A stretch of DNA of 64,000 nucleotides. It comes from Bacteroidaceae bacterium. Its GTDB lineage: Bacteria; Bacteroidota; Bacteroidia; Bacteroidales; Bacteroidaceae. Of the stretch, positions 1 through 14,086 are shown one piece after another. A program made the position numbers and the translations under genes. Where the stretch lies: positions 3,237-67,236 of the forward strand of contig JAFTRV010000067.1 of the NCBI GenBank assembly GCA_017462065.1. The letters are read 5' to 3'. Each line of letters begins with the position of its first letter. The stretch's first letter is position 1. The notes under the pieces are model-generated. The model saw only the letters and a program-made list of their open reading frames with translations, was not told the origin of the DNA and made no database searches.

Positions 1-2
1 AC

Positions 3-3000
3 TTCCTTTGGGGCTTTAACCTGTCGTGGAAGAAACAGAGCCAATGGCTCACCAACATTATTGACCGCTTGCCGCTGATAAGCTGCACAGAGCCCTCTTC
101 GATAAGCATCTCGGCAGAGTTCGCAAGGCTCGAGGCCGGCACGTCGAAGCATGTTCAGAGCGAAGCGTCGTACATCGACGACTTCGAAAGCACCGAGAAC
201 GGCATAGACCTCAAGTCGCCGTCGCAATGGCAGCTATCCTCCTTGCCGAGCGGCATGCCCTACAGCAACCTTATTAACGACGTACGCACAGGGTACGACC
301 GCGCACGCATAAGCTGGTATACCATTGACCCGCTGTTCACGCGCCGCAGCTCGTCGCTGACGCCGGCGCACATAAAGAGCGACATGGAACAGCTGTCGAA
401 CCACTACGTGCGCGAGGTGTACGAGAGAGAGCTGTACCCCAACAAAGAATCGACATTCGGAGAGTCCTCGACAATGTCGCTTTTCGACGTAACCTACTAC
501 CCCAACGAGCGCGGCCCGTACAACCTTGACACCGACATGGACTTCAACGGCAAGCTGAACAACCCCGAGAGGCGTTGGGGCGGCATCACACGCCAGCTGA
601 CGACAACCGATTTCGAGAGCGCCAATATACAGTACCTCGAGTTCTGGCTGCTCGACCCGTTCATATACGAACAGATGGGCATGGGCGGCGACCTCTACTT
701 TAACTTAGGCGAGGTGTCGGAGGACATTCTGAAGGACGGCAAGAAGTTCTTCGAGAATGGCTTGCCTGCGACAGGCAACACTTACGAATATGAAGAGACC
801 GCATGGGGCCGTGTGCCTCTGACGACCGGCCTTGTGTACGCCTTTGACAACAATTCGGGCAGCAGAGAGCAGCAGGATGCGGGCTTGAACGGATTGAGCA
901 GCAGCGACGAGGCACAGTTCCCTGTCTACAAGAACTACCTCGACGCATTGAAGGGCCGTGTTAGACAGGAGGTGTACGACAGCATAGCCAACGACCCTGC
1001 CGGCGACGACTACCACTACTTCAGAGGCGGCGACTACGACGCAGCCGAGAAGAGCATCATAGAGCGATACAAATACTTCAACAACACCGAGGGCAACTCG
1101 CCGGAGTCGTCGGGCAACACCTTCAGCAGCGCCGCAAAATCGACTCCCGACATTGAGGATGCCAACCAGGACTTCACGATGGACGAGTACGAGAACTTTT
1201 TCCAGTATAAGGTATCGCTGCGTCCCGAGGATATGCATGTAGGCCGCAACTACATAACCGACAAACGCACAGTAACCACCAAGCTGCGTAACGGAAAGAC
1301 CGAGAGCGTGAACTGGTACAAGTTCCGCATCCCTATCGAAGAGTATGAAAAAGCTGTAGGCTCGATACGTGACTTCACCTCGATACGCTTCATACGAATG
1401 TACATGACATCGTTCGCCAAGCCCGTAACCCTGCGTTTCGCAACCATGCAGCTCGTGAGAGGCACATGGCGTCCTTATCAGCAGCCGATAGCATCGAAGA
1501 ACAACACATCGCCGACAATGTCGGGCGAGTTCACCACATCGGCGGTAAGCATCGAGGAGCATGGCGACAGAAAGCCGGTAAACTACGTGCTGCCTCCGGG
1601 CGTAACAAGAATCATTGACCCGAGCCAGCCGCAGCTGAGACAGGACAACGAGCAGGCTCTTGCATTGAACATCAACAACCTGGGCAGCAAGGAGTCGAGG
1701 GCGGTATACAAGAAGAGCAACCTTGACATACGCCAGTATGAGCGCATACAGCTATACATTCATGCCGAGGCGCCCGAGGCCGATGCCACGCAGCTGAGCA
1801 ACAACGACGTGTCGCTGTTCGTACGCTTAGGCTCCGACTACAAGAGCAACTACTACGAGTACGAGATTCCGCTGCAGCTCACGCCTCACGGCTCGTATGA
1901 CGGCAACAGCACTGCCGCCATGACCGCCGTATGGCCTCAGGAGAACATGATTGACATAAAGCTGAGCAAGCTCACCGACGTCAAGGTGAGACGCAACACC
2001 CTGCGCAACAACAATGCCGAAGGCGTAAGCAACACCACCATATACAGCGAATACGACGAAGAGACTCCCAAGAACAGGATAAGCATTGTCGGCAGCCCGT
2101 CGCTCGGACAGGTCAAGGTGATGATGATTGGAGTACGCAACAACAGCGCAAGCAACAAATCGGCGATTATATGGGTCAATGAGATGCGTCTGCTCGGCTT
2201 CAGCAACAAGAGCGGATGGGCGGCGCAGGGCAACCTAAACCTGAAGCTGTCGGACATTGCCCAGTTCGCTGCTCAAGGAAAGATTGAGACAGCCGGCTTC
2301 GGCGGCCTTGAGGACAAGCTGTCGGCACGCAGTACCGACGACTACTACAAATACTCGCTCACAGGCTCCATGAACGCAGGCCGCCTGCTGCCGAAGTCGT
2401 TCAAGGTATCGGTGCCGCTCTACTACTCGTTCACCGACGAGGTTACATCGCCTCTTTACAGCCCGTTCGACACCGACATCATGCTCGGCGACATGCTCGA
2501 CACATATGACGACGAGAGAAGAGACTCGATAAAGAACATTGCCGAGGTACGTTCAAGGACTCACAACTTCAGCGTAAGCAACGCAAAGGTGAACATAAGC
2601 AGCAAGAAGTCCATGCCGTACGACCCAGCGAACATCAGCTTCAGCTATTCACGCTCAAGCACCGACAACAGCGGAAGCACCATAAGCTGGGAGAACAGGC
2701 TGAACTGGAAAGCGTCGATAGCCTACAACTATTCAAGCCCCATAAAGACTATAAAGCCATTCGGCAAGATTAAGAACAAGTCAAGGTGGCTGAAGATAAT
2801 GAAAGACTGGGGAGTGAACCCGTTGCCGCAGACACTGGCCCTCAGCACCGACATGACACGCACATACCACGAGATACAGCGGAGAGACCTCAATGCCGTC
2901 GCCGGCGGCAACGACATACCGCTCACCTTCTCTCAGCAGTTCTACTGGAACCGTGCCTTCTCGATAAAGTGGGACCCTACAACAAACCTCAGGATGAGCC

Positions 3001-5072
3001 TCAACACGGGAACGAACGCCGAGGTAGAAGAGCCTTTTGTCCCGGTGAACAAGGCGATGTATCCCAACGAGTATGAGATGTGGAAGGACTCTGTCAAGCA
3101 TAGCCTTGCCGACTTTGGCACGCCGCTCGGCTACCAGCAGAACTTTACCGCATCGTACAGCCTGCCGCTCAACAAAGTGCCCGTGTTCGAATGGCTGGCG
3201 GCCGACGTGAGCTACTCGGCGACATACAATTGGCAGAGAGGAAACACAATCTCGGGAGTGAACTTCGGCAATAACATTTCGAACAAACGCAATGTCACGG
3301 CAAAGGCCACGATCAGCTTAGAGAAGCTGTACAACCTTATACCCTACCTTGAGGAGACGAACAAACGGTTCGCAAGCAACAAACGCAAGGCGAATGTACG
3401 CAAGCCTAAGCCAAAGAAGGTGAAGCCGTTCGTGAAGGAGATTGAGATTCGCAAAGACACTACCGTGACCATTGAGCACAACCTCAAGAGCAAAAAGTTC
3501 GAGATTACCGCACGCACCAAGAAAGGCGAGAAATACTGTCTCAAGTACAAAGTCATCGACGACAACAAGATACTTGTCAAGAACAATGACAGCATAGACG
3601 TCAAAGTCACTATTCTGCCAAAGGCAGACAACGGTGAGCGCAGCAAGTTCGCACTGGCCATGCAGTACCCCGTAAGAGCCCTGATGCTCGTGCGTAACGT
3701 GTCGGTGAACTACACCAACGCATATGCCATGAGCCTGCCGGGATTCCTGCCGACGACGGGCGACATATTCGGGCAGAACAAGATTAACGGCGTGTATGCT
3801 CCGGGACTTGACTTCGCATTCGGTTTCACCGATGACAGCTTCTTGCAGAAGGCGCACCGCAACAGCTGGCTGCTGCGCAGCGACAGCGTGGCTTCGGAGG
3901 CGTCGTCCACTGCTGCCGAGGACCTGCAGGTGAGAGTGACGCTTGAGCCTATGAGGGATTTCAAGATAGACCTCAACGCAAACTGGACACGCAACAACAG
4001 CAAGAGCGTACAGTTCATGTACGAGGGCATGCCGTTCAACGAGTCGGGCGGCCTTAACATGACAACAATAACCATAGGCAGCTCGTTCGGCGGCGGCAAT
4101 GCGGCGAACGGATACAAGTCGGCTGTCTACGACAGCTTCGTGAGCAACATCGAAGCGTACCGCCAGAAGACAGAGCAGCTTTACCAGGGAGCCAAATACC
4201 CTGCTTCGAGCACGCTTGCAGGCGAGAGCTACGATGCGGCGAACGGCGGCGTGAACAAATATTCCGCCGACGTGATGATACCCGCATTCCTTGACACATA
4301 TACAGGCATCAAGGGCAACGGCATATTCCCTGAGATGTTCCGCCTGCTGCCTAACTGGAAGATAAAATATTCGGGACTCTCAAAGCTCGAGTTCCTGAAG
4401 AAATACTTCAAGAGCGTGAACATAGAGCATGGCTACAAGAGCGTGTATGCAGTTGGCTCATACAGCACATATGCCACATACATGGAGTACTCGAAGGGCA
4501 TAGGCTTCGTGAACAGCACCACTACCGGACTGCCCGTTCCGAGCGGAAGGTACAATGTGGGCGCAGTGTCGATAAACGAGAGTTTCTCGCCGCTGATAGG
4601 ACTTGACGTCACGACCAACTTCAACCTAACCTTAGGGGGAAAATACATCAAGTCAAGAACGCTCAACATGAGCGTCACGGCAATACAGCTTGTCGAGACA
4701 AGCTCCGAGGAGATAGCGTTCAACATCGGCTACAAGATTGTAAACCTCAAGTTCCTGAACGGCGGCAAGAAGGCAAGCAAGAGCAAGAAAGAGAGCAAGT
4801 CGGGCAGTGGCAACGACATTAACATACGTGCCGACTTCTCGTTCAAGAACAGTTCGTCGGTATGCCGCAGCATAGATAAAGGCACGACACAGGCGACAAG
4901 CGGCAACAAATCGTTCAACTACTCGCTCACGGCCGACTACGCATACAGCAAGACACTTACGTTCAGCCTCTACTTCGACCGTCAGAAGACTATACCGCTC
5001 ATTTCGGCGAACTCATACCCCACATCGACAACAGACTTCGGCGTGAGCATGAAGTTCTCGCTTGCAAGATGA
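3..5072 (+). CDS. sprA: T9SS translocon / gliding-motility protein SprA, C-terminal ~1690 aa; the 5' end lies outside the window
   Basis: The frame is open from nt 3, with no stop before the TTG at 69 that the ORF track uses. It is a single 5-kb ORF encoding a beta-rich outer-membrane-type protein with SprA-like stretches (e.g. RISWYTIDPLF). Stop TGA at 5070-5072. Confidence 0.8.
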   Translation, partial: FLWGFNLSWKKQSQWLTNIIDRLPLISCTEPSSISISAEFARLEAGTSKHVQSEASYIDDFESTENGIDLKSPSQWQLSSLPSGMPYSNLINDVRTGYDRARISWYTIDPLFTRRSSSLTPAHIKSDMEQLSNHYVREVYERELYPNKESTFGESSTMSLFDVTYYPNERGPYNLDTDMDFNGKLNNPERRWGGITRQLTTTDFESANIQYLEFWLLDPFIYEQMGMGGDLYFNLGEVSEDILKDGKKFFENGLPATGNTYEYEETAWGRVPLTTGLVYAFDNNSGSREQQDAGLNGLSSSDEAQFPVYKNYLDALKGRVRQEVYDSIANDPAGDDYHYFRGGDYDAAEKSIIERYKYFNNTEGNSPESSGNTFSSAAKSTPDIEDANQDFTMDEYENFFQYKVSLRPEDMHVGRNYITDKRTVTTKLRNGKTESVNWYKFRIPIEEYEKAVGSIRDFTSIRFIRMYMTSFAKPVTLRFATMQLVRGTWRPYQQPIASKNNTSPTMSGEFTTSAVSIEEHGDRKPVNYVLPPGVTRIIDPSQPQLRQDNEQALALNINNLGSKESRAVYKKSNLDIRQYERIQLYIHAEAPEADATQLSNNDVSLFVRLGSDYKSNYYEYEIPLQLTPHGSYDGNSTAAMTAVWPQENMIDIKLSKLTDVKVRRNTLRNNNAEGVSNTTIYSEYDEETPKNRISIVGSPSLGQVKVMMIGVRNNSASNKSAIIWVNEMRLLGFSNKSGWAAQGNLNLKLSDIAQFAAQGKIETAGFGGLEDKLSARSTDDYYKYSLTGSMNAGRLLPKSFKVSVPLYYSFTDEVTSPLYSPFDTDIMLGDMLDTYDDERRDSIKNIAEVRSRTHNFSVSNAKVNISSKKSMPYDPANISFSYSRSSTDNSGSTISWENRLNWKASIAYNYSSPIKTIKPFGKIKNKSRWLKIMKDWGVNPLPQTLALSTDMTRTYHEIQRRDLNAVAGGNDIPLTFSQQFYWNRAFSIKWDPTTNLRMSLNTGTNAEVEEPFVPVNKAMYPNEYEMWKDSVKHSLADFGTPLGYQQNFTASYSLPLNKVPVFEWLAADVSYSATYNWQRGNTISGVNFGNNISNKRNVTAKATISLEKLYNLIPYLEETNKRFASNKRKANVRKPKPKKVKPFVKEIEIRKDTTVTIEHNLKSKKFEITARTKKGEKYCLKYKVIDDNKILVKNNDSIDVKVTILPKADNGERSKFALAMQYPVRALMLVRNVSVNYTNAYAMSLPGFLPTTGDIFGQNKINGVYAPGLDFAFGFTDDSFLQKAHRNSWLLRSDSVASEASSTAAEDLQVRVTLEPMRDFKIDLNANWTRNNSKSVQFMYEGMPFNESGGLNMTTITIGSSFGGGNAANGYKSAVYDSFVSNIEAYRQKTEQLYQGAKYPASSTLAGESYDAANGGVNKYSADVMIPAFLDTYTGIKGNGIFPEMFRLLPNWKIKYSGLSKLEFLKKYFKSVNIEHGYKSVYAVGSYSTYATYMEYSKGIGFVNSTTTGLPVPSGRYNVGAVSINESFSPLIGLDVTTNFNLTLGGKYIKSRTLNMSVTAIQLVETSSEEIAFNIGYKIVNLKFLNGGKKASKSKKESKSGSGNDINIRADFSFKNSSSVCRSIDKGTTQATSGNKSFNYSLTADYAYSKTLTFSLYFDRQKTIPLISANSYPTSTTDFGVSMKFSLAR

Positions 5073-5073: not shown

Positions 5074-5144
5074 GATTAACGATTAACGTTTAACGAGGAA
5101 CGTTTAACGAGGAACGAATTAACGATTAACGTATAACGATTAAA
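5074..5144. repeat. Tandem 7-nt repeat array 1: 10 units of G(A/T)TTAAC with variants GAGGAAC, GTATAAC and one 8-nt unit
   Basis: Read directly: GATTAAC GATTAAC GTTTAAC GAGGAAC GTTTAAC GAGGAAC GAATTAAC GATTAAC GTATAAC GATTAAA. The array starts 2 nt after the sprA stop. Confidence 0.9.
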
Positions 5145-5237: not shown

Positions 5238-5307
5238 GATTAACGATTAACGTTTAACGTTTAACGTTTAACGATTAACGATTAGCGATTAACGATTAGC
5301 GATTAAC
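5238..5307. repeat. Tandem 7-nt repeat array 2: 10 units of G(A/T)TTAAC with GATTAGC variants, same orientation as array 1
   Basis: Read directly: GATTAAC x2, GTTTAAC x3, GATTAAC, GATTAGC, GATTAAC, GATTAGC, GATTAAC. Confidence 0.9.
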
Positions 5308-5331
5308 GAGGGCTACATTGTAACCTAAGCC

Positions 5332-5381
5332 ACCTTAGTATCCCTTAGCCTCCCTTAATCGCCCTTAGTTGCCCTTAAACC
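5332..5381. repeat. Five consecutive 10-bp units, each starting (A/C)CCTTA(G/A)
   Basis: ACCTTAGTAT CCCTTAGCCT CCCTTAATCG CCCTTAGTTG CCCTTAAACC. They are preceded by an inverted CTAAG at 5325-5329. Confidence 0.8.
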
Positions 5382-5386: not shown

Positions 5387-5429
5387 TACTCAGAGAGCGA
5401 GATTGAAATTCAATCTCGCTCTCTGAGTA
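5387..5429. terminator. 43-nt perfect inverted repeat. Likely the host terminator directly downstream of tRNA-Arg (minus strand), and possibly bidirectional for sprA
   Basis: TACTCAGAGAGCGAGATTGAA-A-TTCAATCTCGCTCTCTGAGTA. By the junction analysis it abuts the element boundary and would sit immediately 3' of the tRNA in an empty site. Confidence 0.55.
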
Positions 5430-5440
5430 CACCTGACGGT
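5420..5440. other. attL junction (host half-site / AC / element half-site)
   Basis: AGTAC at 5426-5430 is repeated at 13016-13020. The GC content drops immediately to the right. The sequence to the right (ACCTGACGG) is the inverted partner of CCGTCAAGT at the other end of the element. Confidence 0.55.
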
Positions 5441-5566
5441 TTCGACTTCGAACTACTATTGAAAGACCTTGACCTAATTTGGGAACTACGAAAATATATC
5501 CCAATAGGTCCGTATCGTTAAAAAACAGACAAGGTTGGTAATGGTATCAAATTGCAAAACACAATC

Positions 5567-5590
5567 AGCACCCCTCTGTGGGTGCTTTTT
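5567..5590 (+). terminator. Rho-independent terminator-like hairpin
   Basis: AGCACCC-CTCTGT-GGGTGCT followed by TTTTT. It lies 46 nt after the stop (5519-5521) of the LSR frame as it would read in the circular form. Confidence 0.55.
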
Positions 5591-5746
5591 ATGTATGTAA
5601 CCTATATCGCTTATCAAATATCATTTTTAGTCGTATAGGTAAAAACTGTTTTTATTTTTTTGTACAGAAATATTTTTCAAAAAAAGTTACTTACTATTTA
5701 CTCTTTTTCTACTTATGCTACTATTTATAATAAAACAGTATTGCTT

Positions 5747-5944
5747 ATGAAAAGAACATACAGAGAATTAAATGATGATACCAAACAGCGTATCAGTCAA
5801 GCCCTCAAAGGGCGTGGTTTGACAGACAACCACAAGCAAGCCATCAGCGATGGTATGAGAGCATATTGGGCAACAATCCCCAATAAGCCAAACGATGGAA
5901 CTAATGAGATTAAAAACAGTATTAACAATGAAAATCAGTGCTGA
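5747..5944 (+). CDS. Small DNA-binding protein with two NUMOD3-like motifs (65 aa)
   Basis: TKQRISQALKGRG and HKQAISDGMRAYW resemble the NUMOD3 K-x-x-I-S-x-A/G-x-x-G pattern. ATG at 5747. Its 3' end overlaps the next gene by 17 nt. Confidence 0.5.
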   Translation: MKRTYRELNDDTKQRISQALKGRGLTDNHKQAISDGMRAYWATIPNKPNDGTNEIKNSINNENQC

Positions 5945-6812
5945 CAAAGTAAAACTATGCTACACACTCTATGAAGACTCTCCATTATATCAACTAATGG
6001 AAACACCCCTCGAAATCTATGAACTCCCACATTGGGATTTTCGCCTTGAAAGGACAGAGGGCAAATATTACAATTACATCTACAAAATCATTTACCTTGA
6101 ACGAACAAGCAACAACCCCAACAGCGAGTACGATATGCAATGCTTTGGTACATTGCGTTGGGGATTGAAAGCAGACAAAGAGGGCGAAATGAGTGGGTTT
6201 GTATGGATTGAGATAGACAACAAGCAACTATACCTCAACTACAATTATAACACCCACAATCGCCTCGTTTACCTCGATTACATAGAGGGCGTATTGGGAT
6301 TGAAATTCCACAACCTTACACGCCTCGACCTCGCTTTCGATGATACCCGAAACCTCTCCAAACGCCTAATTCGTGCCATTCGTGATGAAAACCTAATACC
6401 TATAGTAAACGGCACAAAGGTAACAGACAGGGATAAACTCCTTGAAGATATACTTTACATAGGCGTTGGGTCTTGTCGCAGAATTAAGGAATACAGCCTC
6501 ATAGTCCAGCAGAAGAATGGCGATTTACGCCTCTCTGCATACAACAAGAAAAGAGAAATCGAAAGCAATAGTGGCAAACACTACATCGCAGAAGCCAATG
6601 GCAACCCCAATTACCTTTTTCGTTTAGAGGTTCGTGTAAATGGCGATACCTTGCGAGAATATTTCCAACACTTGGGTATAGAATACAATCCTATGTTGTT
6701 CTGCAACGAAGATTTCCTTTGGCGTTTGTTCCTTGACTTTTCAAACAGAGTGTTACGCTTCCAAACTGTAAAGGGTAAACAGACTCTCGATGTTCTTGAT
6801 ATTGTTGCGTAG
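5928..6812 (+). CDS. Rep_trans-family rolling-circle replication initiator, or MOB_T-like relaxase
   Basis: Motifs typical of PF02486-type proteins: TRLDLAFDD, LRLSAYNKKREIE (R-x-Y-d-K) and FRLEVRV. The internal ATG at 5928 is preferred over 5895. Confidence 0.6.
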   Translation: MKISADKVKLCYTLYEDSPLYQLMETPLEIYELPHWDFRLERTEGKYYNYIYKIIYLERTSNNPNSEYDMQCFGTLRWGLKADKEGEMSGFVWIEIDNKQLYLNYNYNTHNRLVYLDYIEGVLGLKFHNLTRLDLAFDDTRNLSKRLIRAIRDENLIPIVNGTKVTDRDKLLEDILYIGVGSCRRIKEYSLIVQQKNGDLRLSAYNKKREIESNSGKHYIAEANGNPNYLFRLEVRVNGDTLREYFQHLGIEYNPMLFCNEDFLWRLFLDFSNRVLRFQTVKGKQTLDVLDIVA

Positions 6813-6930
6813 GGTATTAGTAAACCACCCTATGAATATATAGTATTTTACTGTAATTGATTGATATAATAGAGAATAATCTATATCAAACCTATGTATG
6901 AAATACACAGTATTGTATCAAACTAAAAAT

Positions 6931-6975
6931 GTATCAAGGTAATCAATAAAAAGACAACCTTGATACATTCTTTTT
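6931..6975 (+). terminator. Rho-independent terminator after rep
   Basis: GTATCAAGGT (6931-6940) pairs with ACCTTGATAC (6957-6966). A T-run follows at 6971-6975. Confidence 0.6.
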
Positions 6976-7034
6976 GTGTTAGTCTAATTTAAAATATTAT
7001 GTTGATAAAATAAGCAATGTGTAATAAATAATAT

Positions 7035-7042
7035 TACATTTG
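7035..7042 (+). promoter_or_regulatory. Bacteroidetes -7 box (TAnnTTTG)
   Basis: TACATTTG lies 18 nt upstream of the ATG at 7060. Confidence 0.45.
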
Positions 7043-7059
7043 TCAAAATTCAATTTGCT

Positions 7060-8055
7060 ATGGCAGAATTAAGAGTAAAAGAGATAATAAACCAAAGGGG
7101 CATATCTGTTCGTGAGTTTGCTCAAATGATAGGTGTTACTCGTGAATATTGTTATTCGTTATTAAAAGGAGAACACGCAAGTCAAAAGATTGTCGAAACT
7201 ATGGGGCGTGTTCTTAATCTTCCTATTAGGGATTTATATACACAACCCGATGAGGTAAAACCAATATACAATCCTTATGAAATTGTTTTTGGCAGAACAG
7301 AACACTACAAACCCAATGATATTGTAACCTTTGGTAAATTGAATGGAAAGTATGGTGCTTTAAGCAATATGAGTACAGTATATCCAGTCGAGTGCTGTGG
7401 ATATAAATTCAAGACAAGCGAACATTTGTTTATTGCCTTACGCTTCTCGGGTTACCCCGATTTACAGCGTGAAGTTATGGAATACAAAAACTCTATGTAC
7501 TGTAAGAAAGTGTTCATAAACAGCAATAAATATACTGATTTCCTATTTCCTCATTGGCGTGAAAATTATTTCGATGTTGAGGTAATGAAGTATATCGTAA
7601 ACTTGAAGTATGCTCAAAATGAGGGTTTTCGAAAGTTGCTTGCAAAGACTAAAGGAAAAATCATTGTAGAGGACACAACAATGCAGAACCATAGTAATAT
7701 GGTATTGCGTTGGGGTTGTCAAGACTTGCAGAAAAAAGACCTTGTAAGGGCAGTGAGAACCTCTACAGAACGTTATATTCGTTCATTTGAGAAAGACGCT
7801 TTGGCAAAGACTGCCTCGCTTAAAAGACCTCGTAGTGCCTCTAAACAGAAATCTTTTGATGATAAACTCAAAGCACAAATACAATCGATGGAAAAGGTCG
7901 TAGATATATGTGAGCAAACAATACTTGCTCAATGTAATTATACTTTAGTGGGCGAAAATGCAATGGGCAAGATACTCACAATACTGCGTGATAATGGTTC
8001 TATTGACCATAAATTTGATTATCCCCTATTCTTATTTGATAATGAAATAAAGTAG
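7060..8055 (+). CDS. Fusion of an XRE-type HTH domain and a NADAR (DUF1768/YbiA-like) domain
   Basis: N-terminus: ISVREFAQMIGVTREYCYSLLKG (HTH). NADAR signatures: YGALSNMS...FKTSEHLFIALRF, then VMKYIVNLKYAQNEGFRKLL...RWG, then GENAMGKILTILRD. An insertion of about 70 aa separates the last two. Confidence 0.7.
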   Translation: MAELRVKEIINQRGISVREFAQMIGVTREYCYSLLKGEHASQKIVETMGRVLNLPIRDLYTQPDEVKPIYNPYEIVFGRTEHYKPNDIVTFGKLNGKYGALSNMSTVYPVECCGYKFKTSEHLFIALRFSGYPDLQREVMEYKNSMYCKKVFINSNKYTDFLFPHWRENYFDVEVMKYIVNLKYAQNEGFRKLLAKTKGKIIVEDTTMQNHSNMVLRWGCQDLQKKDLVRAVRTSTERYIRSFEKDALAKTASLKRPRSASKQKSFDDKLKAQIQSMEKVVDICEQTILAQCNYTLVGENAMGKILTILRDNGSIDHKFDYPLFLFDNEIK

Positions 8056-8070
8056 ATTTTTATATAAAAT

Positions 8071-8115
8071 GATTGCCATCGGCGCAGCCGGTGGCAATCA
8101 ATTATTTATTTTTTT
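8071..8115 (+). terminator. Strong GC-rich hairpin terminator
   Basis: GATTGCCATCGGC-GCA-GCCGGTGGCAATC (13-bp stem with one G-U pair), followed by AATTATTTATTTTTTT. Confidence 0.7.
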
Positions 8116-8144
8116 GATATTTGTAAATAGATGAAATTTATTGC

Positions 8145-8152
8145 TATTTTTG
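8145..8152 (+). promoter_or_regulatory. -7 box (TAnnTTTG)
   Basis: TATTTTTG lies 25 nt upstream of the ATG at 8177. Confidence 0.4.
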
Positions 8153-8176
8153 CGAAAAATCTAATAATATAAGATT

Positions 8177-8428
8177 ATGGAAAATGATAAGAAAATGAAG
8201 ATTGATGTTAATCTTGAAAATAACAAGTATGTTGAGTTAATCAATAAAGGACAATTATTACAAGCTGTAAAAGAATACAAGGAAGATAATAATTGCAGTC
8301 TAAAAGAAGCGAAAGATTATATTGATAATTTGAGGGGATATGACCCTAAAAATGACAATGGAGGTTGCTTGGGAGTTGTTGCATTACTTGTTCTACTATC
8401 ATCAACAGCGATTTATTTTTGTTTATAA
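8177..8428 (+). CDS. 83-aa protein: L7/L12-C-terminal-domain-like motif plus a C-terminal transmembrane helix
   Basis: LLQAVKEYKEDNNCSLKEAKDYIDNL resembles the K-x-I-K-x-V-R-x-x-T-G-L-G-L-K-E-A-K-D-L-V segment of L7/L12. The C-terminus GCLGVVALLVLLSSTAIYFCL is hydrophobic. Confidence 0.5.
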   Translation: MENDKKMKIDVNLENNKYVELINKGQLLQAVKEYKEDNNCSLKEAKDYIDNLRGYDPKNDNGGCLGVVALLVLLSSTAIYFCL

Positions 8429-8444
8429 ATCTGTAAATGTTAAA

Positions 8445-8477
8445 ATTATAGCCACCAGTTAAACTAGTGGCTATAAT
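8445..8477. terminator. Bidirectional hairpin between convergent genes
   Basis: ATTATAGCCAC ... GTGGCTATAAT: perfect 11-bp arms flanked by A/T runs. Confidence 0.6.
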
Positions 8478-8479
8478 TT

Positions 8480-9586
8480 TTATTCGACTAATAACTGCAT
8501 AGCATTTACAACGAACCAAGAGTCAAATCCAACAAAAGTATAAGGTTTGGGATTTGCGCCATCTTTCACAAGTTCTATACCATCACTATATGGTTTGTAA
8601 GACAAGACTTTGGAAATTCCCATTTTTACCTGCTTGTCACCTATGAAATATAAATTCTTGTTGGTAATAATAAAAACTCCTCTGCCCAAGTCATTTTGAT
8701 ATTGATATTCTATAGAATGTCCTTTGCTTGCTCCTACACGATAATACACTCCTTTGCAAACTCTCATACTAACACCACTAGAACCACCAACATACTTACG
8801 CCCTGTCTTTTCCTCATACCCTTTAACATCTTTGAAGACCCAAAGGAGTTGTTCCTTTTTCCCCAATAGAATAGGAAGATTTCCAACAAGAAGTCTTTTT
8901 TCAACATCTTTTCCTTCTTGAATATCCCTTAAAATCAAAGACTGTATTAGTCTTTGGTATGCACTGCTTTTGTAGAGAGTGGCAGTATCAGACAATGAGG
9001 AATATTCAAGGAATTTGCTGATTTGTTCTTCCTCGTTATTATCAATAATACCATCTTCAAGATATTCGTTTATTTTTTTAGACAAGACTAACAGTAGACT
9101 TTCGTTTATGCTTTTAGAAACAGAGTCGTTAATTTTGACCTCTTTCATTAAAGCTTGATATTCCTTGATTTTTTCTTCCTCATCATTCTGCAATGTTAAG
9201 AATTTCAAGAAAAAATAATTCGCCCAAAAATCGTTGTAATGACTTGTGTTTAGAACTTTTTGCTTCAAGTGTTCGGGTATTGAAAACATAAAAGTCTTAA
9301 AACCAATGTAATCAAGCATTACCGCTTTTTTCTTTAACAAATCGTTTAATGCATCTGTTACAATTCCATCAAAAATATCATCGCTTATGTAACCACTAGA
9401 GATGGTATTTGCTAATTCCTCTTTAGCTTCATTGTAATTTGTAAATGAAGATTTAGACTCATTTATGAAAAATCTTCTAGAGAAAATTTTTCTTAATTCT
9501 TCTATTGTAGCAAAATGCTTTTGTTCACACTCTTTATGTTTTGTGCTGAAAAATCCAGCGGGTTTATGGCAATATTTACACTTCAT
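8480..9586 (-). CDS. Protein of unknown function: N-terminal zinc-ribbon-like CxxC...C, helical middle, C-terminal bacterial PH/GRAM-like beta domain
   Basis: MKCKYCHKPAGFFSTKHKEC at the N-terminus. The C-terminus GVFIITNKNLYFIGDKQVKMGISKVLSY is typical of YokE-like bPH domains. It has its own TATATTTG box upstream (minus strand). Confidence 0.55.
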   Translation of the reverse strand: MKCKYCHKPAGFFSTKHKECEQKHFATIEELRKIFSRRFFINESKSSFTNYNEAKEELANTISSGYISDDIFDGIVTDALNDLLKKKAVMLDYIGFKTFMFSIPEHLKQKVLNTSHYNDFWANYFFLKFLTLQNDEEEKIKEYQALMKEVKINDSVSKSINESLLLVLSKKINEYLEDGIIDNNEEEQISKFLEYSSLSDTATLYKSSAYQRLIQSLILRDIQEGKDVEKRLLVGNLPILLGKKEQLLWVFKDVKGYEEKTGRKYVGGSSGVSMRVCKGVYYRVGASKGHSIEYQYQNDLGRGVFIITNKNLYFIGDKQVKMGISKVLSYKPYSDGIELVKDGANPKPYTFVGFDSWFVVNAMQLLVE

Positions 9587-9671
9587 AGCATTTTTTTTGC
9601 AAATATATATTTTTTAAGAAATTAAACACAGGTTGGATAACATTTTTATAAACTAATTGTTAAAGTATGTA

Positions 9672-9914
9672 TTATTCCCCTTGCTTCTTACGCCCCCTAG
9701 TAGTGGGTTTAACATAGAGTGTACCTTTTCTTATGGTACACTTTTTGTTTTTATATATTGGTTCATCACTATCTCCCAACTTGCTGAAATAGTTGTTTAA
9801 TGCCGCTTGTGAGATACCAATTTCCTCTCGTGTGTATTTATCGAATAGTGAAGATGGAGAACCAAAATATTCGTGTCTATCTTCTATCTGTAAATGTAAA
9901 ATCGTTCTTTCCAT
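9672..9914 (-). CDS. Small putative DNA-binding (HTH) protein, 80 aa; candidate element regulator or excision factor
   Basis: IGISQAALNNYFSKLG is an HTH-like segment, and the tail RGRKKQGE is basic. ATG at 9914 is preferred. It is divergent from the SH3-like/resolvase operon. Confidence 0.45.
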   Translation of the reverse strand: MERTILHLQIEDRHEYFGSPSSLFDKYTREEIGISQAALNNYFSKLGDSDEPIYKNKKCTIRKGTLYVKPTTRGRKKQGE

Positions 9915-9931
9915 ATCGTAAATTTGGTGCA

Positions 9932-9956
9932 AAATTAGAGAAATATTATCTAATTT
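9932..9956. promoter_or_regulatory. Operator-like inverted repeat
   Basis: AAATTAGA-9 nt-TCTAATTT in the divergent intergenic region. Confidence 0.3.
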
Positions 9957-9987
9957 GAAATAAAATCATATTTTTATGCTGGATTTT

Positions 9988-10003
9988 TGCTAAAATATTA
10001 GCA
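9988..10003. promoter_or_regulatory. Operator-like palindrome
   Basis: TGCTAA-AATA-TTAGCA, 19 nt upstream of the -7 box at 10022. Confidence 0.3.
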
Positions 10004-10021
10004 GGATTAAAATAGAATAAC

Positions 10022-10029
10022 TATCTTTG
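10022..10029 (+). promoter_or_regulatory. -7 box (TAnnTTTG)
   Basis: TATCTTTG lies 22 nt upstream of the ATG at 10051. Confidence 0.45.
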
Positions 10030-10050
10030 TGGTGTTGAAAGCAAATAGAT

Positions 10051-10422
10051 ATGTTTAACCACTTAACCAATACAGATATGATAGCAGTAGCAAATAATTC
10101 AGTTGTTGTAATAAATAATCTTACAAGTCGTAGAGCCAGCGTAATCGCTCATAGAACCAACAGCGAGGCGATGGGCGTAATCAAGGCACAGATGATTGAC
10201 TTGCTCAAAGCAAAGTTGCAGATGGGTGTTGCTCACTTCGTATATATGAAGAAAGATGGCACGCTTCGTGAGGCGTGGGGTACAACATCAAGCAACCTTA
10301 TGAAAGCAAACATAAATGGCAGAGGCATTTCAAGGGATAGCGTGAACACTGTTTGCTATTGGGATTGTGAAAAGGGTGGATTTCGTTCACTGCGTTTTGA
10401 AAATCTTATTGAGGTTCTTTAA
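10051..10422 (+). CDS. SH3 beta-barrel-fold (DUF2693-like) protein
   Basis: FVYMKKDGTLREAWGTT ... CYWDCEKGGFRSLRFENL matches my recollection of the Bacteroidetes/phage DUF2693 pattern (K-x-D-G ... W-D-x-E-K-x-G-W-R-S-F). Confidence 0.5.
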   Translation: MFNHLTNTDMIAVANNSVVVINNLTSRRASVIAHRTNSEAMGVIKAQMIDLLKAKLQMGVAHFVYMKKDGTLREAWGTTSSNLMKANINGRGISRDSVNTVCYWDCEKGGFRSLRFENLIEVL

Positions 10423-10435
10423 TAGTAGTGGGAGT

Positions 10436-11068
10436 ATGGCAAAGGTCGTTATATACGCTCGTGTAAGCACGCAAGGACAAGACTATGAGCGACAGTTGGC
10501 AGAGTTGCGTGAGTACGCTCGTAAGATGGAATACGAGGTAGTAATGGAGTTCTGCGAAAAGGTTAGTGGCGCAAAGACTGTAGCAGAACGCCAAGCCCTT
10601 ACAGAGTTGCTTTCATTCGTTGAGTGCAACAAGATGGATAAGGTTCTTATCTATGAGTGCAGTCGCTTATCGAGGCGTGCAATAGATTTCCTTACTGTAA
10701 TAGAAAATCTTACAGCAAAGAAAATCAGTGTATATATCCTCCAAAATGGTCTTGAAACACTGCTCCCCAATGGCCAGCCCAACCCTATTGCACAGTTGGT
10801 TATGGGTATTCTTGCGCAGTTTAACAGTATGGAGCGTAGCCTCATAAGAAGCAGAATGGAGAGTGGTTATAATCATTATAGAGCGATTGGTGGCAAGGTA
10901 GGTCGTAAAGAGGGTTATCGTAAAAGCGAGGAAGCAATGAGGGTGGAGTATGCAAAGGAAATCCAACTCTTGCGCAAAGGATTGTCGCTTCGAAATGTGT
11001 CTGCAATTACTTCAACAAGTGTAAATACATTAAGAAAATTAAGAAATATTAACAAATTGCAAGCGTAA
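10436..11068 (+). CDS. Small serine recombinase (resolvase/invertase family) with C-terminal HTH
   Basis: MAKVVIYARVSTQGQDYERQ is the catalytic Ser motif. Also present: ECSRLSRR, the E-helix region and the C-terminal HTH (LSLRNVSAITSTSVNTLRKL). The start at 10436 is preferred over the 10367 extension in the ORF track. Confidence 0.85.
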   Translation: MAKVVIYARVSTQGQDYERQLAELREYARKMEYEVVMEFCEKVSGAKTVAERQALTELLSFVECNKMDKVLIYECSRLSRRAIDFLTVIENLTAKKISVYILQNGLETLLPNGQPNPIAQLVMGILAQFNSMERSLIRSRMESGYNHYRAIGGKVGRKEGYRKSEEAMRVEYAKEIQLLRKGLSLRNVSAITSTSVNTLRKLRNINKLQA

Positions 11069-11079
11069 ATTTGTTTTTT
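11051..11079 (+). terminator. AT-rich hairpin terminator overlapping the resolvase stop
   Basis: AACAAATT-GCAAGCGTA-AATTTGTT followed by TTTT. Confidence 0.45.
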
Positions 11080-11093
11080 CAAAATAAAAAATA

Positions 11094-11101
11094 TATGTTT
11101 G
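11094..11101 (+). promoter_or_regulatory. -7 box (TAnnTTTG) for the LSR operon
   Basis: TATGTTTG. It would place a TSS near 11107, about 240 nt upstream of the first ORF. Confidence 0.35.
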
Positions 11102-11340
11102 CGTTGTTAGGTTTCGAAACTCTAAATAACTCACTGACAACAGCGCAAAAGAGAATATTCCAATAGTGAGTTACAATCAATAAGGACATAGTTAAAAGAC
11201 AAGGTGGCAACCCTTGAAAGAAGTAGTTTGTTGCAAACGAAAGGCAACGAGCAGGTGCTTTACGCCCTAGCGTTTCCTCGTTGTTGGTATGCCACAAAGC
11301 ACCAAAAAATAAGCCACAGAGCATTGTGGCAAGGAAAATT
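11101..11340 (+). promoter_or_regulatory. Structured 5' leader or candidate ncRNA upstream of the small ORF and the LSR gene
   Basis: Several hand-found helices: 11101-08/11139-46; 11127-35/11165-73 (interleaved with the first); palindrome GTTTCGAAAC at 11111-20; 11245-51/11277-83 enclosing ACGC/GCGT; GCCACA/TGTGGC at 11313-30. The region is locally more GC-rich than the rest of the element. Confidence 0.35.
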
Positions 11341-11348
11341 TAAATTAG

Positions 11349-11501
11349 ATGTTAAGTTTAGAAGTATGTAGAAAAATATTAAACAATAGCAGAAAAACAT
11401 ATTCAGATGATGAAATAAAGAAAATCAGACAGTTTTTATACACTTGTGCTGAAATTCAAATAGAAGCAAATAATATTATAAATAAGGAGATAGAAGTATG
11501 A
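11349..11501 (+). CDS. 50-aa ORF translationally coupled (ATGA overlap) to the LSR gene
   Basis: MLSLEVCRKILNNSRKTYSDDEIKKIRQFLYTCAEIQIEANNIINKEIEV. Its TGA (11499-11501) overlaps the LSR ATG (11498-11500). It is too short to appear in the ORF track. Confidence 0.4.
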   Translation: MLSLEVCRKILNNSRKTYSDDEIKKIRQFLYTCAEIQIEANNIINKEIEV

Positions 11502-13048
11502 CAAATGTAATTTTATATTGTCGTGTTAGTAGCGATGAACAAGTAGACGGCACAAGTCTTGACCATCAAGAAAAGACTTTGAGAGAGTATTGCAGATATA
11601 AGGGGTACAATATTATTAAATGCTGTAGAGAGGATTACAGTGCGAAATACCACGATTTCAGAAGACCCGAAATGAAATGGATTTTGAATTACTGTAAGAA
11701 ACACAAAAATGAAGTAGATTTAATTCTTTTTCTACGATGGGATAGATTTAGTCGTAACCCAGAATTTGCACACGCTTTCAAGCGTATATTTATGGATGAA
11801 ATGGGAATAAACTTCAATGCGATTGAAAATCCCATCGACTTTGAAGCAACAGAATGGAGTACCCTTTTCAGTCTTTATGCAGGTATAGCACAGACCGAAA
11901 ATAACAAAATTAGCAAGAGAACAAGCGAGGGCATTAGAGAAGCCTCCCTCAAAGGGCAATGCGCTTTTATGGCACCTAGGGGATATAAAAATGTAAGAAT
12001 GGGTAAACACGATTGCTGTGTTATTATAGACAAAGAGAAAGCACCACTCGTTAGAGCGATTTTCAAAGAGATTGCAAAGGGTGTCAAAGCACCTTGTATG
12101 ATTAGAAAGGAACTTGCAAGTCATATCCCCAACACATCTTTTTACACTATGCTACGCAATGTATTCTACATTGGCAAAATACGAGTAAGAGCCACAAAGA
12201 CAGAACCCGAGGTTATTGTAAATGGTTTGCACGAACCATTGATAAGTGAGGAAACATTTTATAAGGTACAAGAGATTTTGGATGGCAAGTTAAAGAAGAA
12301 ACCAAAAGCCACCAAAACAACAAGGAGTGATTTATATTTGAGAAAGGTATTAGTATGTCCTCACTGTGGTTATGGTATCACAGGAGCGACAAGCAGAGGC
12401 ACTGGAGGGTATTATACCTATTATAATTGTAGTCATAACCCAAAGCATATCAGAGCAAGGGCAGAAAAGGTAAACGATGGATTTGCAGAGTATCTACACA
12501 ACCTTGTACCAAACGAGGAGATATTGGAACTCTACACAGAGATATTAAAGGACATCAATAAGGAGAGCAAAGCAGAAAAGAAATTAACCATCAACAAACT
12601 CAAAGAGGAGATTGAGAAGATAAAGAACAAACTCAACTCTGTTGATGACAAGTTTATTGAGGGCGATATAGATAAAGAACAGTATCAACGAATAAGCGAC
12701 AGATACAAGAGAGAGATAGGAGCAACAGAAGAACGCATTAAAACTCTTGAACTATCAAACAAAGAAAATATCGAACCCAAATTCGATTACTCTATTTCAT
12801 TGATTGCCAATATAGATAAATACCTTAAAGAAGCACCCCCTGAGGTAAAGTTGAAAATCATCAGTTCGATATTTCACGAAAAAATTATATTTGATGGAAA
12901 AAATTATCGAACTAAAAACTACAACAAAATCATTGACCTCATTTATCAGAATACCAACATTTTACAAGAGGGAAAGAATGAAAAAACGGGAGAGGAAATC
13001 ATTCCAATCCCGTCAAGTACCTCAGTCGGGAATCGAACCCGAATCTAA
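11498..13048 (+). CDS. Large serine recombinase (integrase) of the element
   Basis: N-terminal resolvase domain (ILYCRVSSDEQ), recombinase domain, zinc ribbon (CPHCGYG...YYNCSH) and a coiled-coil region. The last 9 codons and the stop (13019-13048) are encoded by tRNA-Arg DNA. Confidence 0.9.
   Translation: MTNVILYCRVSSDEQVDGTSLDHQEKTLREYCRYKGYNIIKCCREDYSAKYHDFRRPEMKWILNYCKKHKNEVDLILFLRWDRFSRNPEFAHAFKRIFMDEMGINFNAIENPIDFEATEWSTLFSLYAGIAQTENNKISKRTSEGIREASLKGQCAFMAPRGYKNVRMGKHDCCVIIDKEKAPLVRAIFKEIAKGVKAPCMIRKELASHIPNTSFYTMLRNVFYIGKIRVRATKTEPEVIVNGLHEPLISEETFYKVQEILDGKLKKKPKATKTTRSDLYLRKVLVCPHCGYGITGATSRGTGGYYTYYNCSHNPKHIRARAEKVNDGFAEYLHNLVPNEEILELYTEILKDINKESKAEKKLTINKLKEEIEKIKNKLNSVDDKFIEGDIDKEQYQRISDRYKREIGATEERIKTLELSNKENIEPKFDYSISLIANIDKYLKEAPPEVKLKIISSIFHEKIIFDGKNYRTKNYNKIIDLIYQNTNILQEGKNEKTGEEIIPIPSSTSVGNRTRI
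13009..13030. other. attR junction (element half-site / AC / tRNA 3' end)
   Basis: CCGTCAAGT-AC-CTCAGTCGG. The AGTAC is shared with attL. The tRNA discriminator and the last acceptor-stem bases are preserved by this microhomology. Confidence 0.55.
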
Positions 13049-13089
13049 GTCTTAGGAGGACCTTATTCTATCCATTGAACTACTAAGGC
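13018..13089 (-). tRNA. tRNA-Arg (anticodon CCT)
   Basis: Cloverleaf folded by hand on the minus strand. Acceptor GCCTTAG/CTGAGGT (two G-U pairs); D stem GTTC/GAAT; anticodon stem AGGTC/GACTT with loop CTCCTAA; 4-nt variable loop; T stem TCGGG/CCCGA with loop TTCGATT; discriminator A. CCA is not encoded. Confidence 0.85.
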
Positions 13090-13276
13090 ATGAACTGCTA
13101 TTTTGCAATTACTGTGCGAAGATAAGAAATTTATTCACAATCTTCAAATGCTATATTGCTATTTTAATTACAAAAACACAAAAACTGTTATAATGTTTTA
13201 AAGTTTCGAATCAGATGCAGGGCTTTATCAATTAATATACTATATTAGCGAGCGAACACGAAAAGTCTTATTACAT

Positions 13277-14086
13277 ATGAGATTAATTATAACAGTTCTA
13301 TTGCTCGCCCTGACACAGGCAATATTCTCGCAACAGTTCCGTGCCCTGTGCAACGACGGCATAAGACATATACTGAAACATAATTACAAAGAGGCTGCCG
13401 CATGCTTCGAAAAGGCTACCAGATTGGGGGAAAGCGACTCGGAGAAAGCCTACTCCTATGCGAACCTCGCATACTCGCAGCAGATGTGCGGCGAAACGAG
13501 AAAGGCTCTTGCAAGCTATAATTCCGCCATAAAGCACGACCGGGACGAAATAACATTAGTGCAGCAACGAGCGAACATTCTCATGCAGCTCGACAGCCTT
13601 GAGACAGCGCTCAGAGACTATAATTATATTTTAGACAAGGAGCCCGGCAACACGGGGGCTCTTTTCTTCAGGGCAAGCATATACTCCGAAATGAACGAGT
13701 TCGAGAAGGCGAGGGCCGACTACCGCAGCCTGCTCCGCATTGAGCCAAACAACGAGAACGTACAGTTAGGGCTTGCCATGCTGTATAAAAAGGAGGGCAA
13801 ATACAACGAGAGCCTCACGCTGTTGGCCCTGCTCATTGAGCAACACCCGCAGAAGGCCGAATACTACATTGCAAGAAGCGATGTAGAGAGGGCGCTCGGC
13901 TGGAACGAGCTTGCGTTGATGGATGTAGAGAAGGCCATATCTCTGGAGCCCGACAACGCTAATTACTACACTCTTCAGTCTATTCTCTACGGCAAGCTGG
14001 GACGCACCGAGCTGTCGAGACGAAGCAGGCTCGAGGCCGAAAGGCTTAAAGGCGAAAAACCGAGAGGCACGGACGCAAGCGACTGA
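13277..14086 (+). CDS. Secreted TPR-repeat protein
   Basis: Signal peptide MRLIITVLLLALTQAIFSQ followed by repeated TPR-like 34-aa units. Confidence 0.7.
   Translation: MRLIITVLLLALTQAIFSQQFRALCNDGIRHILKHNYKEAAACFEKATRLGESDSEKAYSYANLAYSQQMCGETRKALASYNSAIKHDRDEITLVQQRANILMQLDSLETALRDYNYILDKEPGNTGALFFRASIYSEMNEFEKARADYRSLLRIEPNNENVQLGLAMLYKKEGKYNESLTLLALLIEQHPQKAEYYIARSDVERALGWNELALMDVEKAISLEPDNANYYTLQSILYGKLGRTELSRRSRLEAERLKGEKPRGTDASD

Follow-up and report, generated by a model that had tools for sequence, protein, structure and literature searches.

A Bacteroidales integrative element at tRNA-Arg(CCT) with a large serine recombinase gene that runs across its own attachment site

Between the sprA gene and the tRNA-Arg(CCT) gene of a Bacteroidaceae bacterium (assembly GCA_017462065.1, contig JAFTRV010000067.1, positions 3,237 to 67,236) lies an AT-rich interval that raises the question of whether a discrete mobile element resides there, where precisely it ends and by what means it might move. 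An initial annotation of this 64,000-nucleotide (nt) stretch, which we call the window, placed an integrative element of about 7.59 kb at the tRNA's 3' end. We report here that positions 5431-13020 very probably represent a mobile integrative element, which its own large serine recombinase (LSR) has inserted at GTAC, the four bases with which the tRNA-Arg(CCT) gene ends, and that the reading frame of this recombinase crosses its own attachment (att) site. The earlier picture of the boundaries was right in outline, but had overlooked this crossing, the GTAC core and the conservation of the target on its tRNA side only.

The composition of the interval sets it apart from its surroundings, with a GC content of 0.353 compared with 0.538 in 1-5072, on the sprA side, and 0.509 in 13277-64000. 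In a sliding count the value falls from about 0.55 to 0.27-0.44, dropping at about 5250 and recovering at about 13250, and the hand counts from which an abrupt change had been claimed were reproduced (0.383 at 7081-7140 and 0.567 at 13441-13500). The sole tRNA of the window (ARAGORN; 59.8 bits against the Rfam tRNA model) lies on the minus strand at 13017-13089 and its 3' end therefore points into the element. The pentamer AGTAC, previously noted at both edges, is indeed present at 5426-5430 and 13016-13020. Since a pentamer match alone could be due to chance, copies of the element were sought elsewhere in order to fix its ends, and relatives (loci numbered with L below) were gathered by exact-protein look-ups and a pattern scan of metagenomes. 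In L051-L054 the LSR module is 99.55% identical to the window over 11243-13020 and the match ends exactly at 13020, beyond which the DNA is unrelated; in L055 the match begins at 5427; and the left junction, ...GTAC/ACCTGACGG, where '/' is the junction, recurs in five contexts with unrelated upstream DNA (window/L072, L071/L073/L077, L076, L078 and L055). The ends are therefore 5427-5430 and 13017-13020, which gives an element of 7,590 bp, as first proposed, and the shared core, exact to the base, is GTAC, which makes up the final four bases of the tRNA; AGTAC is not found in all of the relatives.

The protein encoded against the tRNA carries the Resolvase catalytic domain (PF00239, E 3.8e-24, residues 4-154) together with a Recombinase domain (PF07508, E 8.7e-11) and a zinc ribbon (PF13408, Zn_ribbon_recom, E 1.1e-05), both of which pass the curated cut-offs, and it matches the phrog_95 integrase family at E 2.2e-79. 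In an AlphaFold2 model of P0366, a relative of 52% identity, the zinc-ribbon domain contains the coiled-coil (helices 343-390 and 396-439) at a predicted local distance difference test score (pLDDT) of 77-93. Recombination between the element's attachment site (attP) and the chromosomal site (attB) is the predicted reaction of this enzyme. In the integrated state the LSR frame continues for 28 nt past 13020 into the tRNA and ends ...SST/SVGNRTRI before a stop codon. When 13020 is joined to 5431 the frame stays open for 30 more codons and ends ...SST/PDGFDFELLLKDLDLIWELRKYIPIGPYR, again before a stop, giving a protein of 537 amino acids in total. Joining the ends of L009 likewise produces ...ASVP/LSVLFSNQFLHDLDLIWELREFIPL and a stop, and LSR and tail share one reading frame in each of the window, L009, L006 and L050. 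The last of these, a contig of 2,305 nt, holds an intact attP: its 548-residue LSR (P0366) reads ...SVPRTG/LFSNSFLRDLDKIWELREVIPDP... at the C-terminus, and p63 and the beginning of the Rep gene come next on the contig, as would be seen either in a circle or in a tandem pair. P0405, which shares a 90%-identity cluster with P0366, instead reads ...SVPRTG/LEPVHREVLVFETNAS..., an antisense tRNA translation; for the L050-type element, both the attP form and the integrated form of the LSR gene are present in public assemblies. Among the best 120 of 913 LSR homologs (E <= 1e-20), most C-termini are translations of antisense tRNA (PGVEPGWK, VFETSASTDSAIWA) and the tail is present in P0366 only. Two other candidate attP junctions were rejected, namely the start of L008, which is preceded by host DNA with a stop codon in a hairpin and is thus a left junction (attL), and the start of L006, where the upstream DNA is LSR-like and open in frame but at 35 nt is too short to count.

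The codons of the tail argue that it is a genuine part of the protein. Across four diverged elements, the variable columns number 10, 5 and 17 at the three codon positions, so that 17 of 18 third positions vary and second positions seldom do; the peptide D-L-D-x-I-W-E-L-x-x-x-I-P is kept and all four proline codons are in use, a pattern which indicates that the tail is translated. The model of P0366 is confident to about residue 494, and the last 55 or so residues, including the crossover, have a pLDDT of about 35; the tail is not placed by AlphaFold2 because nearly all rows of the alignment end in junk tails. With the crossover inside this flexible end, integration keeps all of the folded domains and swaps only the end of the extension, exchanging a conserved C-terminal peptide, whose codons lie at the far end of the element, for a translation of antisense tRNA. 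The integrase gets a different tail at each insertion. Within the LSR 3' end there is, furthermore, a hairpin with a T-run on the tRNA strand, which could replace the terminator that the tRNA loses on insertion. It is possible, if rather doubtful at present, that the location of attP within the LSR gene acts as a state switch, in which the 537-residue circle form (...FLxDLDxIWELRxxIP) and the 516-residue form with its arbitrary tail differ in activity, stability or partner binding. Were this true, directionality or expression would be set by the topology of the element itself, and the arrangement would be a bacterial serine-recombinase counterpart of the archaeal 'suicidal' integrases and of integration-dependent immunity.

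The attachment sites themselves are of the kind that LSRs use, being short, sharing only the GTAC crossover bases and showing imperfect dyad symmetry: the reconstructed attP is CCGTCA-AGTACACC-TGACGG and the reconstructed attB is CTGAG-TAC-CTCAG. An Rfam microRNA match on the host palindrome that forms the left arm of attB (Table 1) is spurious, and the tRNA is otherwise the only Rfam match. In 13 loci whose LSRs are 29-58% identical to that of the window, every LSR gene runs up to the 3' end of a tRNA on the minus strand (Leu-CAA, Leu-CAG or Arg-CCT) and 10 of the 13 junctions read ...TTCA/GTAC/CC; the hosts are Bacteroides, Muribaculaceae, Prevotellamassilia, Porphyromonadaceae, Chitinophagales and others. 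Among hosts, conservation of the target is confined to its tRNA-side half and the left arms are unrelated. This clade of LSRs may specify the tRNA-side half alone, which would explain both the unrelated left arms and the repeated insertion of elements beside decayed copies.

Several relatives show unusual flanks. In L051 (5628-5700; also L052-L054, making four assemblies) a 99.5%-identical LSR lies at a site without a tRNA, ...cccgtcaaGTAC/ACCACCATGTAAATCC, followed by an NTP_transferase gene, and either this is a secondary target or a deletion took out the tRNA. Remnants of the 3' ends of other LSR genes, 50-150 nt long, stand directly to the left of complete elements in L055 (4157-4298), L075 (about 110-200), L004 (2380-2460) and L003 (9505-9555). 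They create attP-like junctions in the chromosome, and the remnant in L055 is fused to a hairpin of the kind found downstream of Rep. There are two possible readings of such flanks: they are scars that incoming elements can use, the tRNA half-site being all that is specified, or they are what is left of tandem arrays that formed and then decayed. In L062 (240-470) a decayed copy consisting of a p86-like remnant, a hairpin and GTAC, with no LSR, lies beside tRNA-Arg.

The distribution of the element points to movement between hosts. Two contigs, L059 and L070, are 100% identical to the window and are probably its own source contig, and L048 equals the window over 12849-13091, through the tRNA, before diverging. 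The element itself retains 96-100% nucleotide identity in hosts with flanks that are only 72-77% identical; in L055, for example, the LSR region is 96% identical, against 72-73% for the sprA and TPR flanks. The element and its cargo variants thus sit at tRNA-Arg(CCT) in several host backgrounds as a result of horizontal spread. The exact p65 sequence occurs in 79 blocks of the collection and the Rep cluster (P0001) contains 647 sequences. The initial annotation had made much depend on whether a related genome would be found with the flanks contiguous. In L064 (20 contigs), a more distant relative, the site is empty: it has no insert, retains the tRNA-Arg(CCT) and then the right-hand gene order TPR-AraC-alkylation-FUR-PurA as in the window, and has 98 nt between a sulfatase gene and the tRNA, with the empty-site junction ...gtagtcAGTAC/CTCAGTCGGG. 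The junctions predicted earlier were matched in form by this empty site and by an attP-like sequence in L055, ...cccgcggGGTAC/ACCTGACGG; the element's own circle and an isogenic empty site were not found.

The coordinates of the element and of its sites are collected in Table 1. The gene list previously described (a replication or transfer module, two serine recombinases and a block of cargo) was confirmed in its ten open reading frames (ORFs), all of which are intact. For the Rep-like protein, the mechanical ORF begins at 5895 (305 residues), and the start giving 294 residues was chosen as it corresponds to the second methionine, found in most homologs.

Table 1. Features of the integrative element and its attachment sites in the window (aa, amino acids; '/' is the junction).
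Feature	Position	Strand	Description	Basis
Host palindrome	5387..5429	.	Perfect 21+21-nt palindrome in the host flank, ending at the crossover; left arm of reconstructed attB	Inverted-repeat scan
Left GTAC core	5427..5430	.	attL crossover region	Sequence and relatives
LSR gene 3' end	5431..5521	+	Detached; encodes ...PDGFDFELLLKDLDLIWELRKYIPIGPYR and stop; in frame with 11498-13020 on joining
Backbone non-coding region	5522..5746	+	Near-invariant in relatives; candidate promoter and origin (replication, dso, or transfer, oriT) for p65-Rep
Hairpin and T-run	5567..5586	+	Within 5522-5746; putative terminator of the full-length LSR in the circle
p65	5747..5944	+	65-aa basic protein; weak NUMOD3/homing-endonuclease DNA-binding motif
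Rep_trans-like protein	5928..6812	+	294 aa; invariant Tyr205 in AYNKKRE; putative rolling-circle initiator and/or relaxase
Rep-downstream region	6813..6990	+	Conserved; three TGTATCAA motifs and a 25-nt inverted repeat (6916-6940/6957-6981), then Ts
NADAR protein	7060..8055	+	Cargo; HTH_3 and NADAR, 331 aa
p83	8177..8428	+	Cargo; 83 aa, hydrophobic C-terminus
p368	8480..9586	-	Cargo; 368 aa, no family match
p86	9672..9932	-	Backbone; 86 aa, phrog_10608, kept in relatives to 32-42% identity
WYL_2 protein	10051..10422	+	Sm-like SH3; in closer relatives
Small serine recombinase	10436..11068	+	Backbone; resolvase/invertase type, 210 aa
Leader	11069..11348	+	Upstream of p50-LSR
p50	11349..11501	+	Backbone; 50 aa, overlaps the LSR start codon
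LSR, integrated form	11498..13048	+	516 aa; codons past 13020 are antisense tRNA
Right GTAC core	13017..13020	.	Right crossover region (attR); last four bases of the tRNA	ARAGORN and relatives
tRNA-Arg(CCT)	13017..13089	-	Target gene, left intact	ARAGORN, Rfam
Predicted attP			Junction of the circle, ...CCCGTCAAGTAC/ACCTGACGG..., also written ...ATTCCAATCCCGTCAAGTAC/ACCTGACGGTTTCGACTTCG...
Predicted attB			Junction of the empty site, ...AATCTCGCTCTCTGAGTAC/CTCAGTCGGGAATCGAACC...

The Rep_trans label that had been given to the 294-residue protein was upheld through its distant relatives and through alignment with RepC of pT181, though not by any direct Pfam match: PF02486 gives none even at E 10, an exact look-up returned no record and none of the close homologs bears a name. 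Searching 1.84 billion representatives with a profile brought in 398 relatives. From these, 100 full-length distant representatives include 20 that match Rep_trans (PF02486, E <= 0.01, best 4e-06), four that match Phage_CRI and one that carries a fused NUMOD3 motif. Alignment of the family with pT181 RepC by hhalign (probability 80.7%, E 1.3e-5) pairs TRLDLAFD, AYNKKRE with IYNKKQE and RLEVR with RVEIE, and places the catalytic tyrosine of RepC on Tyr205; a plain pairwise BLASTP gives E 3e-4 with about 23% identity over 146 residues. Tyr205, in the YNK motif expected of the catalytic tyrosine, is invariant in the 100 representatives, as are Lys207, Arg232 and Glu234. The AlphaFold2 model has a pLDDT of 70.6, with the active-site stretch 176-230 below 50; Foldseek against BFVD finds unnamed viral proteins at low template-modelling (TM) scores, and profile searches of PDB sequences with the family alignments A1 and A2 return nothing or noise. 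The assignment as Rep_trans-like is supported only indirectly, by agreement of motifs, the protein itself lying outside the formal Pfam family. A full-length homolog (hhalign 100%, E 4e-47) is encoded by pRGF00029 (L069, HG796787.1), a 4.1-kb circular plasmid from rat gut and the only plasmid record with such a homolog, which scores 17.9 bits against a PF02486 cut-off of 29.6; the protein therefore lives on free circles. p65 is always paired with the Rep-like gene and is a candidate DNA-binding partner of its product.

Around these genes the order of the backbone in whole elements is constant: LSR tail, conserved non-coding DNA, p65, Rep-like gene, hairpin region, cargo, p86 on the minus strand, WYL_2 in some, small recombinase, leader, p50, LSR and tRNA. 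The cargo, between the Rep-downstream hairpin and p86, is exchangeable, and consists of NADAR, p83 and p368 in the window, DUF4236 and HNH_5 proteins in L003, a 455-residue protein and a helix-turn-helix (HTH) protein in L004, LRR_5 in L055, L057 and L076, an outer-membrane-like protein with a lipoprotein in L009 and two unknown proteins in L071. The p65/Rep module is also found with unrelated LSRs and other targets, in L004 and in L075 (GCA_900770665.1, CAAGKZ010000102.1; tRNA-Leu beside rplM), where p65 is identical and Rep near-identical, so that replication and integration modules have been exchanged between elements. As to the cargo of the window, the NADAR protein matches PF08719 over residues 96-208 (42.7 bits, cut-off 35.1) and phrog_1017, its 95.8 bits against the NCBIfam anti-phage model DS32_2 lie under the cut-off of 240, and PADLOC gave no credible defence-system match for any of the element proteins.

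The small recombinase has the resolvase/invertase layout, with a Resolvase domain (PF00239, E 1.5e-32, residues 4-152 of 210) and a short C-terminal region in about 200 residues. It matches the phrog_125 DNA invertase at E 6.4e-37, and its L004 homolog has a weak HTH_7 match. An invertible segment for this enzyme was considered and rejected, as no relative shows an inverted arrangement. A perfect 13-nt inverted repeat (7033-7045/11499-11511) links the NADAR promoter box with the LSR start codon, within chance expectation, and a 19-nt palindromic motif, TGTAATAAATAATATTACA, occurs at 7020-7038 in the NADAR promoter region, at 10107-10125 (18/19) and at 10696-10714 (16/19); motif and repeat may serve the HTH domain as an operator or may be chance. 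p50 accompanies the LSR clade beyond the Bacteroidales, in Chitinophagales and a gammaproteobacterial metagenome-assembled genome. The leader before it folds better than its shuffles at 11200-11345 on the plus strand (z -2.7), with no Rfam match, and could be either a leader with a regulatory role or a small RNA. In L012, L015 and L018 a hairpin stands at the same place, with stems that differ yet stay complementary; RNAalifold on the leaders of 13 loci returned 0 pairs, the alignment being too diverged.

The further claim of a separate TAnnTTTG box and hairpin terminator for every gene is true in part. Such boxes lie 14-32 nt upstream of NADAR (7035), p83 (8145), p368 (9600, minus strand) and WYL_2 (10022), but not of p65, Rep, the small recombinase or p50-LSR, and terminator-like hairpins are present only at 5567-5586, 8070-8100 and 8442-8480. 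The GC-rich hairpin TGATTGCCATCGGCG.AGCCGGTGGCAATCA, which follows NADAR in the window (8070-8100), is found just downstream of Rep in L003 (about 11130), and appears to behave like a portable terminator module. The conserved Rep-downstream region (6813-6990) is itself a candidate terminator and/or Rep-binding site, and p86 a candidate DNA-binding regulator. Outside the element, the 358-nt spacer that follows the sprA stop codon contains repeats at 5074-5143, 5238-5309 and 5333-5377, comprising two arrays with about ten copies of the heptamer GATTAAC and 4.5 copies of the 10-mer CCTTAGTCGC; neither array type is found in L055 and L071, which have a YkuD gene at the place of the sprA spacer.

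Taken as a mechanism, this arrangement suggests that the LSR, possibly with p50 or p86 as the directionality factor (RDF) that switches an integrase to excision, would excise a circle of 7,590 bp and restore the 537-residue LSR. The Rep_trans-like protein, together with p65, would nick conserved non-coding DNA of the backbone, either in 5522-5746 or in the hairpin region with the TGTATCAA motifs at 6813-6990, and nicking would drive rolling-circle copying of the circle and/or pass a strand to the conjugation system of a helper. Multimers would be resolved by the small serine recombinase, the hairpin and T-run in the LSR 3' end would take over as terminator of the tRNA, and the slot between the Rep-downstream hairpin and the p86 gene would carry exchangeable cargo. 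In the terms used for integrative mobilizable elements (IMEs), the element has its own module for integration and excision and precise att junctions; the Rep_trans-like protein is the sole candidate for a relaxase, there being no match to a canonical Mob family in the domain searches.

Several observations weigh against this account. The empty site of L064 is non-isogenic and its left-hand synteny differs from that of the window. For the exact element, neither a circular junction nor an isogenic empty site was found in public assemblies, JGI metagenomes or IMG/VR; a combined IUPAC pattern for attB, attP, attL and attR found no match in IMG/VR and a single attR among the JGI metagenomes, and every contig that look-ups of the TPR and FUR proteins brought up in the search for an isogenic empty site was either occupied or broken within the tRNA. 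Such breaks were considered as polymorphism and are instead read as assembly breaks at a repeated tRNA, because L072 and L060, from one sample, overlap inside it. L050, the only contig clearly in the attP form, might be a tandem junction instead of a circle, and in relatives of the L003/L004 type the LSR is an unrelated one, with an annotated frame that ends before the junction. The 294-residue protein has no Pfam, NCBIfam, PHROG or PDB-sequence match, so that its assignment is transitive, and the top PDB matches of its model in Foldseek are TBP-like saddles (E 1e-3, TM 0.25-0.40), with no RepD or RepDE among them. pRGF00029 also encodes a Rep_3 initiator, and the homolog there need not be the replicase. 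The inverted-repeat scan of the element gave no convincing res or inversion site for the small recombinase, and the nick site and the RDF stand at candidate level.

The presence of Rep_3 on pRGF00029 leads directly to an alternative, which overlaps with the proposal above and differs from it only in the role of one protein. The Rep_trans-like protein could be mainly a MobT-like relaxase and the element an IME that borrows a resident mating apparatus, with little or no replication of its own, and we consider this quite possible, if short of an even chance. Beside a theta-type Rep_3 initiator the homolog would be free for another job and so could be a relaxase instead of a replicase, MobT of Tn916, ICESt3 and ICEBs1 is a Rep_trans protein and many streptococcal IMEs carry one without a coupling protein (PMC5704250), p65 resembles a relaxosome accessory protein, and near-identical elements in hosts of 72-77% flank identity need an efficient transfer route. 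The element nonetheless has neither a coupling protein nor a known oriT, its protein lacks the N-terminal HTH domain of MobT, MOB-suite types pRGF00029 as non-mobilizable and the known conjugative systems of Bacteroides use other relaxase families.

That the copy in the window is a fixed or decaying island, immobile now though its family was once mobile, seems unlikely. It would account for the failure to find a circle or empty site for this copy, for the decayed relatives that are common beside the same tRNAs (L062, L055, L075, L004) and for an integrated LSR without the conserved tail, but all ten frames are intact and both att junctions precise, other samples contain the copy at 100% identity and a diverged host has the same ends. 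Packaging by a helper phage, as a phage satellite or prophage remnant, is very improbable. Matches to phage families (phrog_1017 NADAR, phrog_1086 WYL_2, phrog_10608 and the phrog_95 integrase), the small size and the HTH regulator would suit such an origin; against them, the element encodes no capsid, terminase, portal or packaging protein, 50,697 phage records contain no match to its DNA or Rep protein, collections of phages and plasmids gave no match when the whole element was compared by blastn, its att junctions have none in IMG/VR and the cargo of its relatives is non-viral (LRR, outer-membrane-like and HNH proteins).

The mobile integrative element favoured here can be compared with several known systems. 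Streptococcal IMEs carry Rep_trans/MobT proteins with tyrosine or serine recombinases (PMC5704250), and the present element resembles them in being small and integrated, with a site-specific recombinase, a Rep_trans-type protein with a presumed role in maintenance and/or mobilization, variable cargo and no mating-pore genes. Those elements belong to Bacillota, and their serine-recombinase members insert inside genes, whereas this one belongs to Bacteroidota and uses tRNA 3' ends; its Rep is, moreover, too diverged for a direct PF02486 match, it has an extra small serine recombinase and its LSR gene spans attP. The IMEs described from Bacteroides have tyrosine integrases, and serine-recombinase IMEs insert within genes (PMC5704250). 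NBU1, NBU2 and Tn4555 are likewise small integrated elements of gut Bacteroidales, and NBU1 and NBU2 target the 3' ends of tRNA-Leu and tRNA-Ser (see also PMC5704250), but they have tyrosine integrases, longer shared cores and a canonical Mob protein with oriT, in place of the LSR, 4-bp core and lack of a canonical relaxase seen here. With RepC/RepD of pT181/pC221 the catalytic region aligns (TRLDLAFD ... IYNKKQE ... RVEIE); outside it the protein sequences are unrelated, our element is integrated and no pT181-type origin was recognised in it. As in Tn4451 and Tn5397 (TnpX/TndX), the ends are set by an LSR alone, identity at the flanks is very short and a circular intermediate is expected; those transposons differ in their low or different target specificity and their MobV-type relaxases or conjugation genes, and the IME review describes no attP spanning a gene for them (PMC5704250).

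The literature search found nothing relevant on an LSR gene spanning attP or on Bacteroidales elements of this type, most subscription journals being outside its scope. In the integration-dependent immunity of mycobacteriophages an att site lies inside an ORF of the element, the gene that is hit being the repressor and not the integrase. Integrases with the att site inside their own gene have been said to be exclusive to archaea (PMC8371274). Like the 'suicidal' integrases of the SSV type (PMC8371274), the LSR described here has its att site within an ORF of the element, and integration alters the protein that is made. The SSV-type enzyme is a tyrosine recombinase split into two inactive halves; in the bacterial serine recombinase no such split occurs, the folded domains remaining in one piece and a tail of about 30 residues being swapped. 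A large survey of LSRs mentions neither tRNA targets nor gene-spanning att sites (PMC10083194). We conclude that the element represents a Bacteroidales family of LSR/Rep_trans-like integrative elements with a self-retailing integrase, a known kind of element in a new variant.

Serine integrases are tools of genome engineering and the control of their directionality is under active study. A natural integrase whose own reaction rewrites its C-terminus presents a new form of control that can be tested directly, and an LSR that apparently needs one conserved half-site would be an interesting scaffold for targeting. Rep_trans-type proteins, known mainly from plasmids and integrative and conjugative elements of Firmicutes, are extended by this work to a diverged Bacteroidales clade that the Pfam models miss. 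The family abounds in gut metagenomes, with near-identical copies in the hundreds and over 900 related integrases, and moves between Bacteroidales of about 72-77% flank identity, carrying exchangeable cargo (NADAR, LRR, HNH and outer-membrane-like proteins). Since no description of it was met in the literature searched, it is likely to be an overlooked route of gene flow in a major phylum of the gut.

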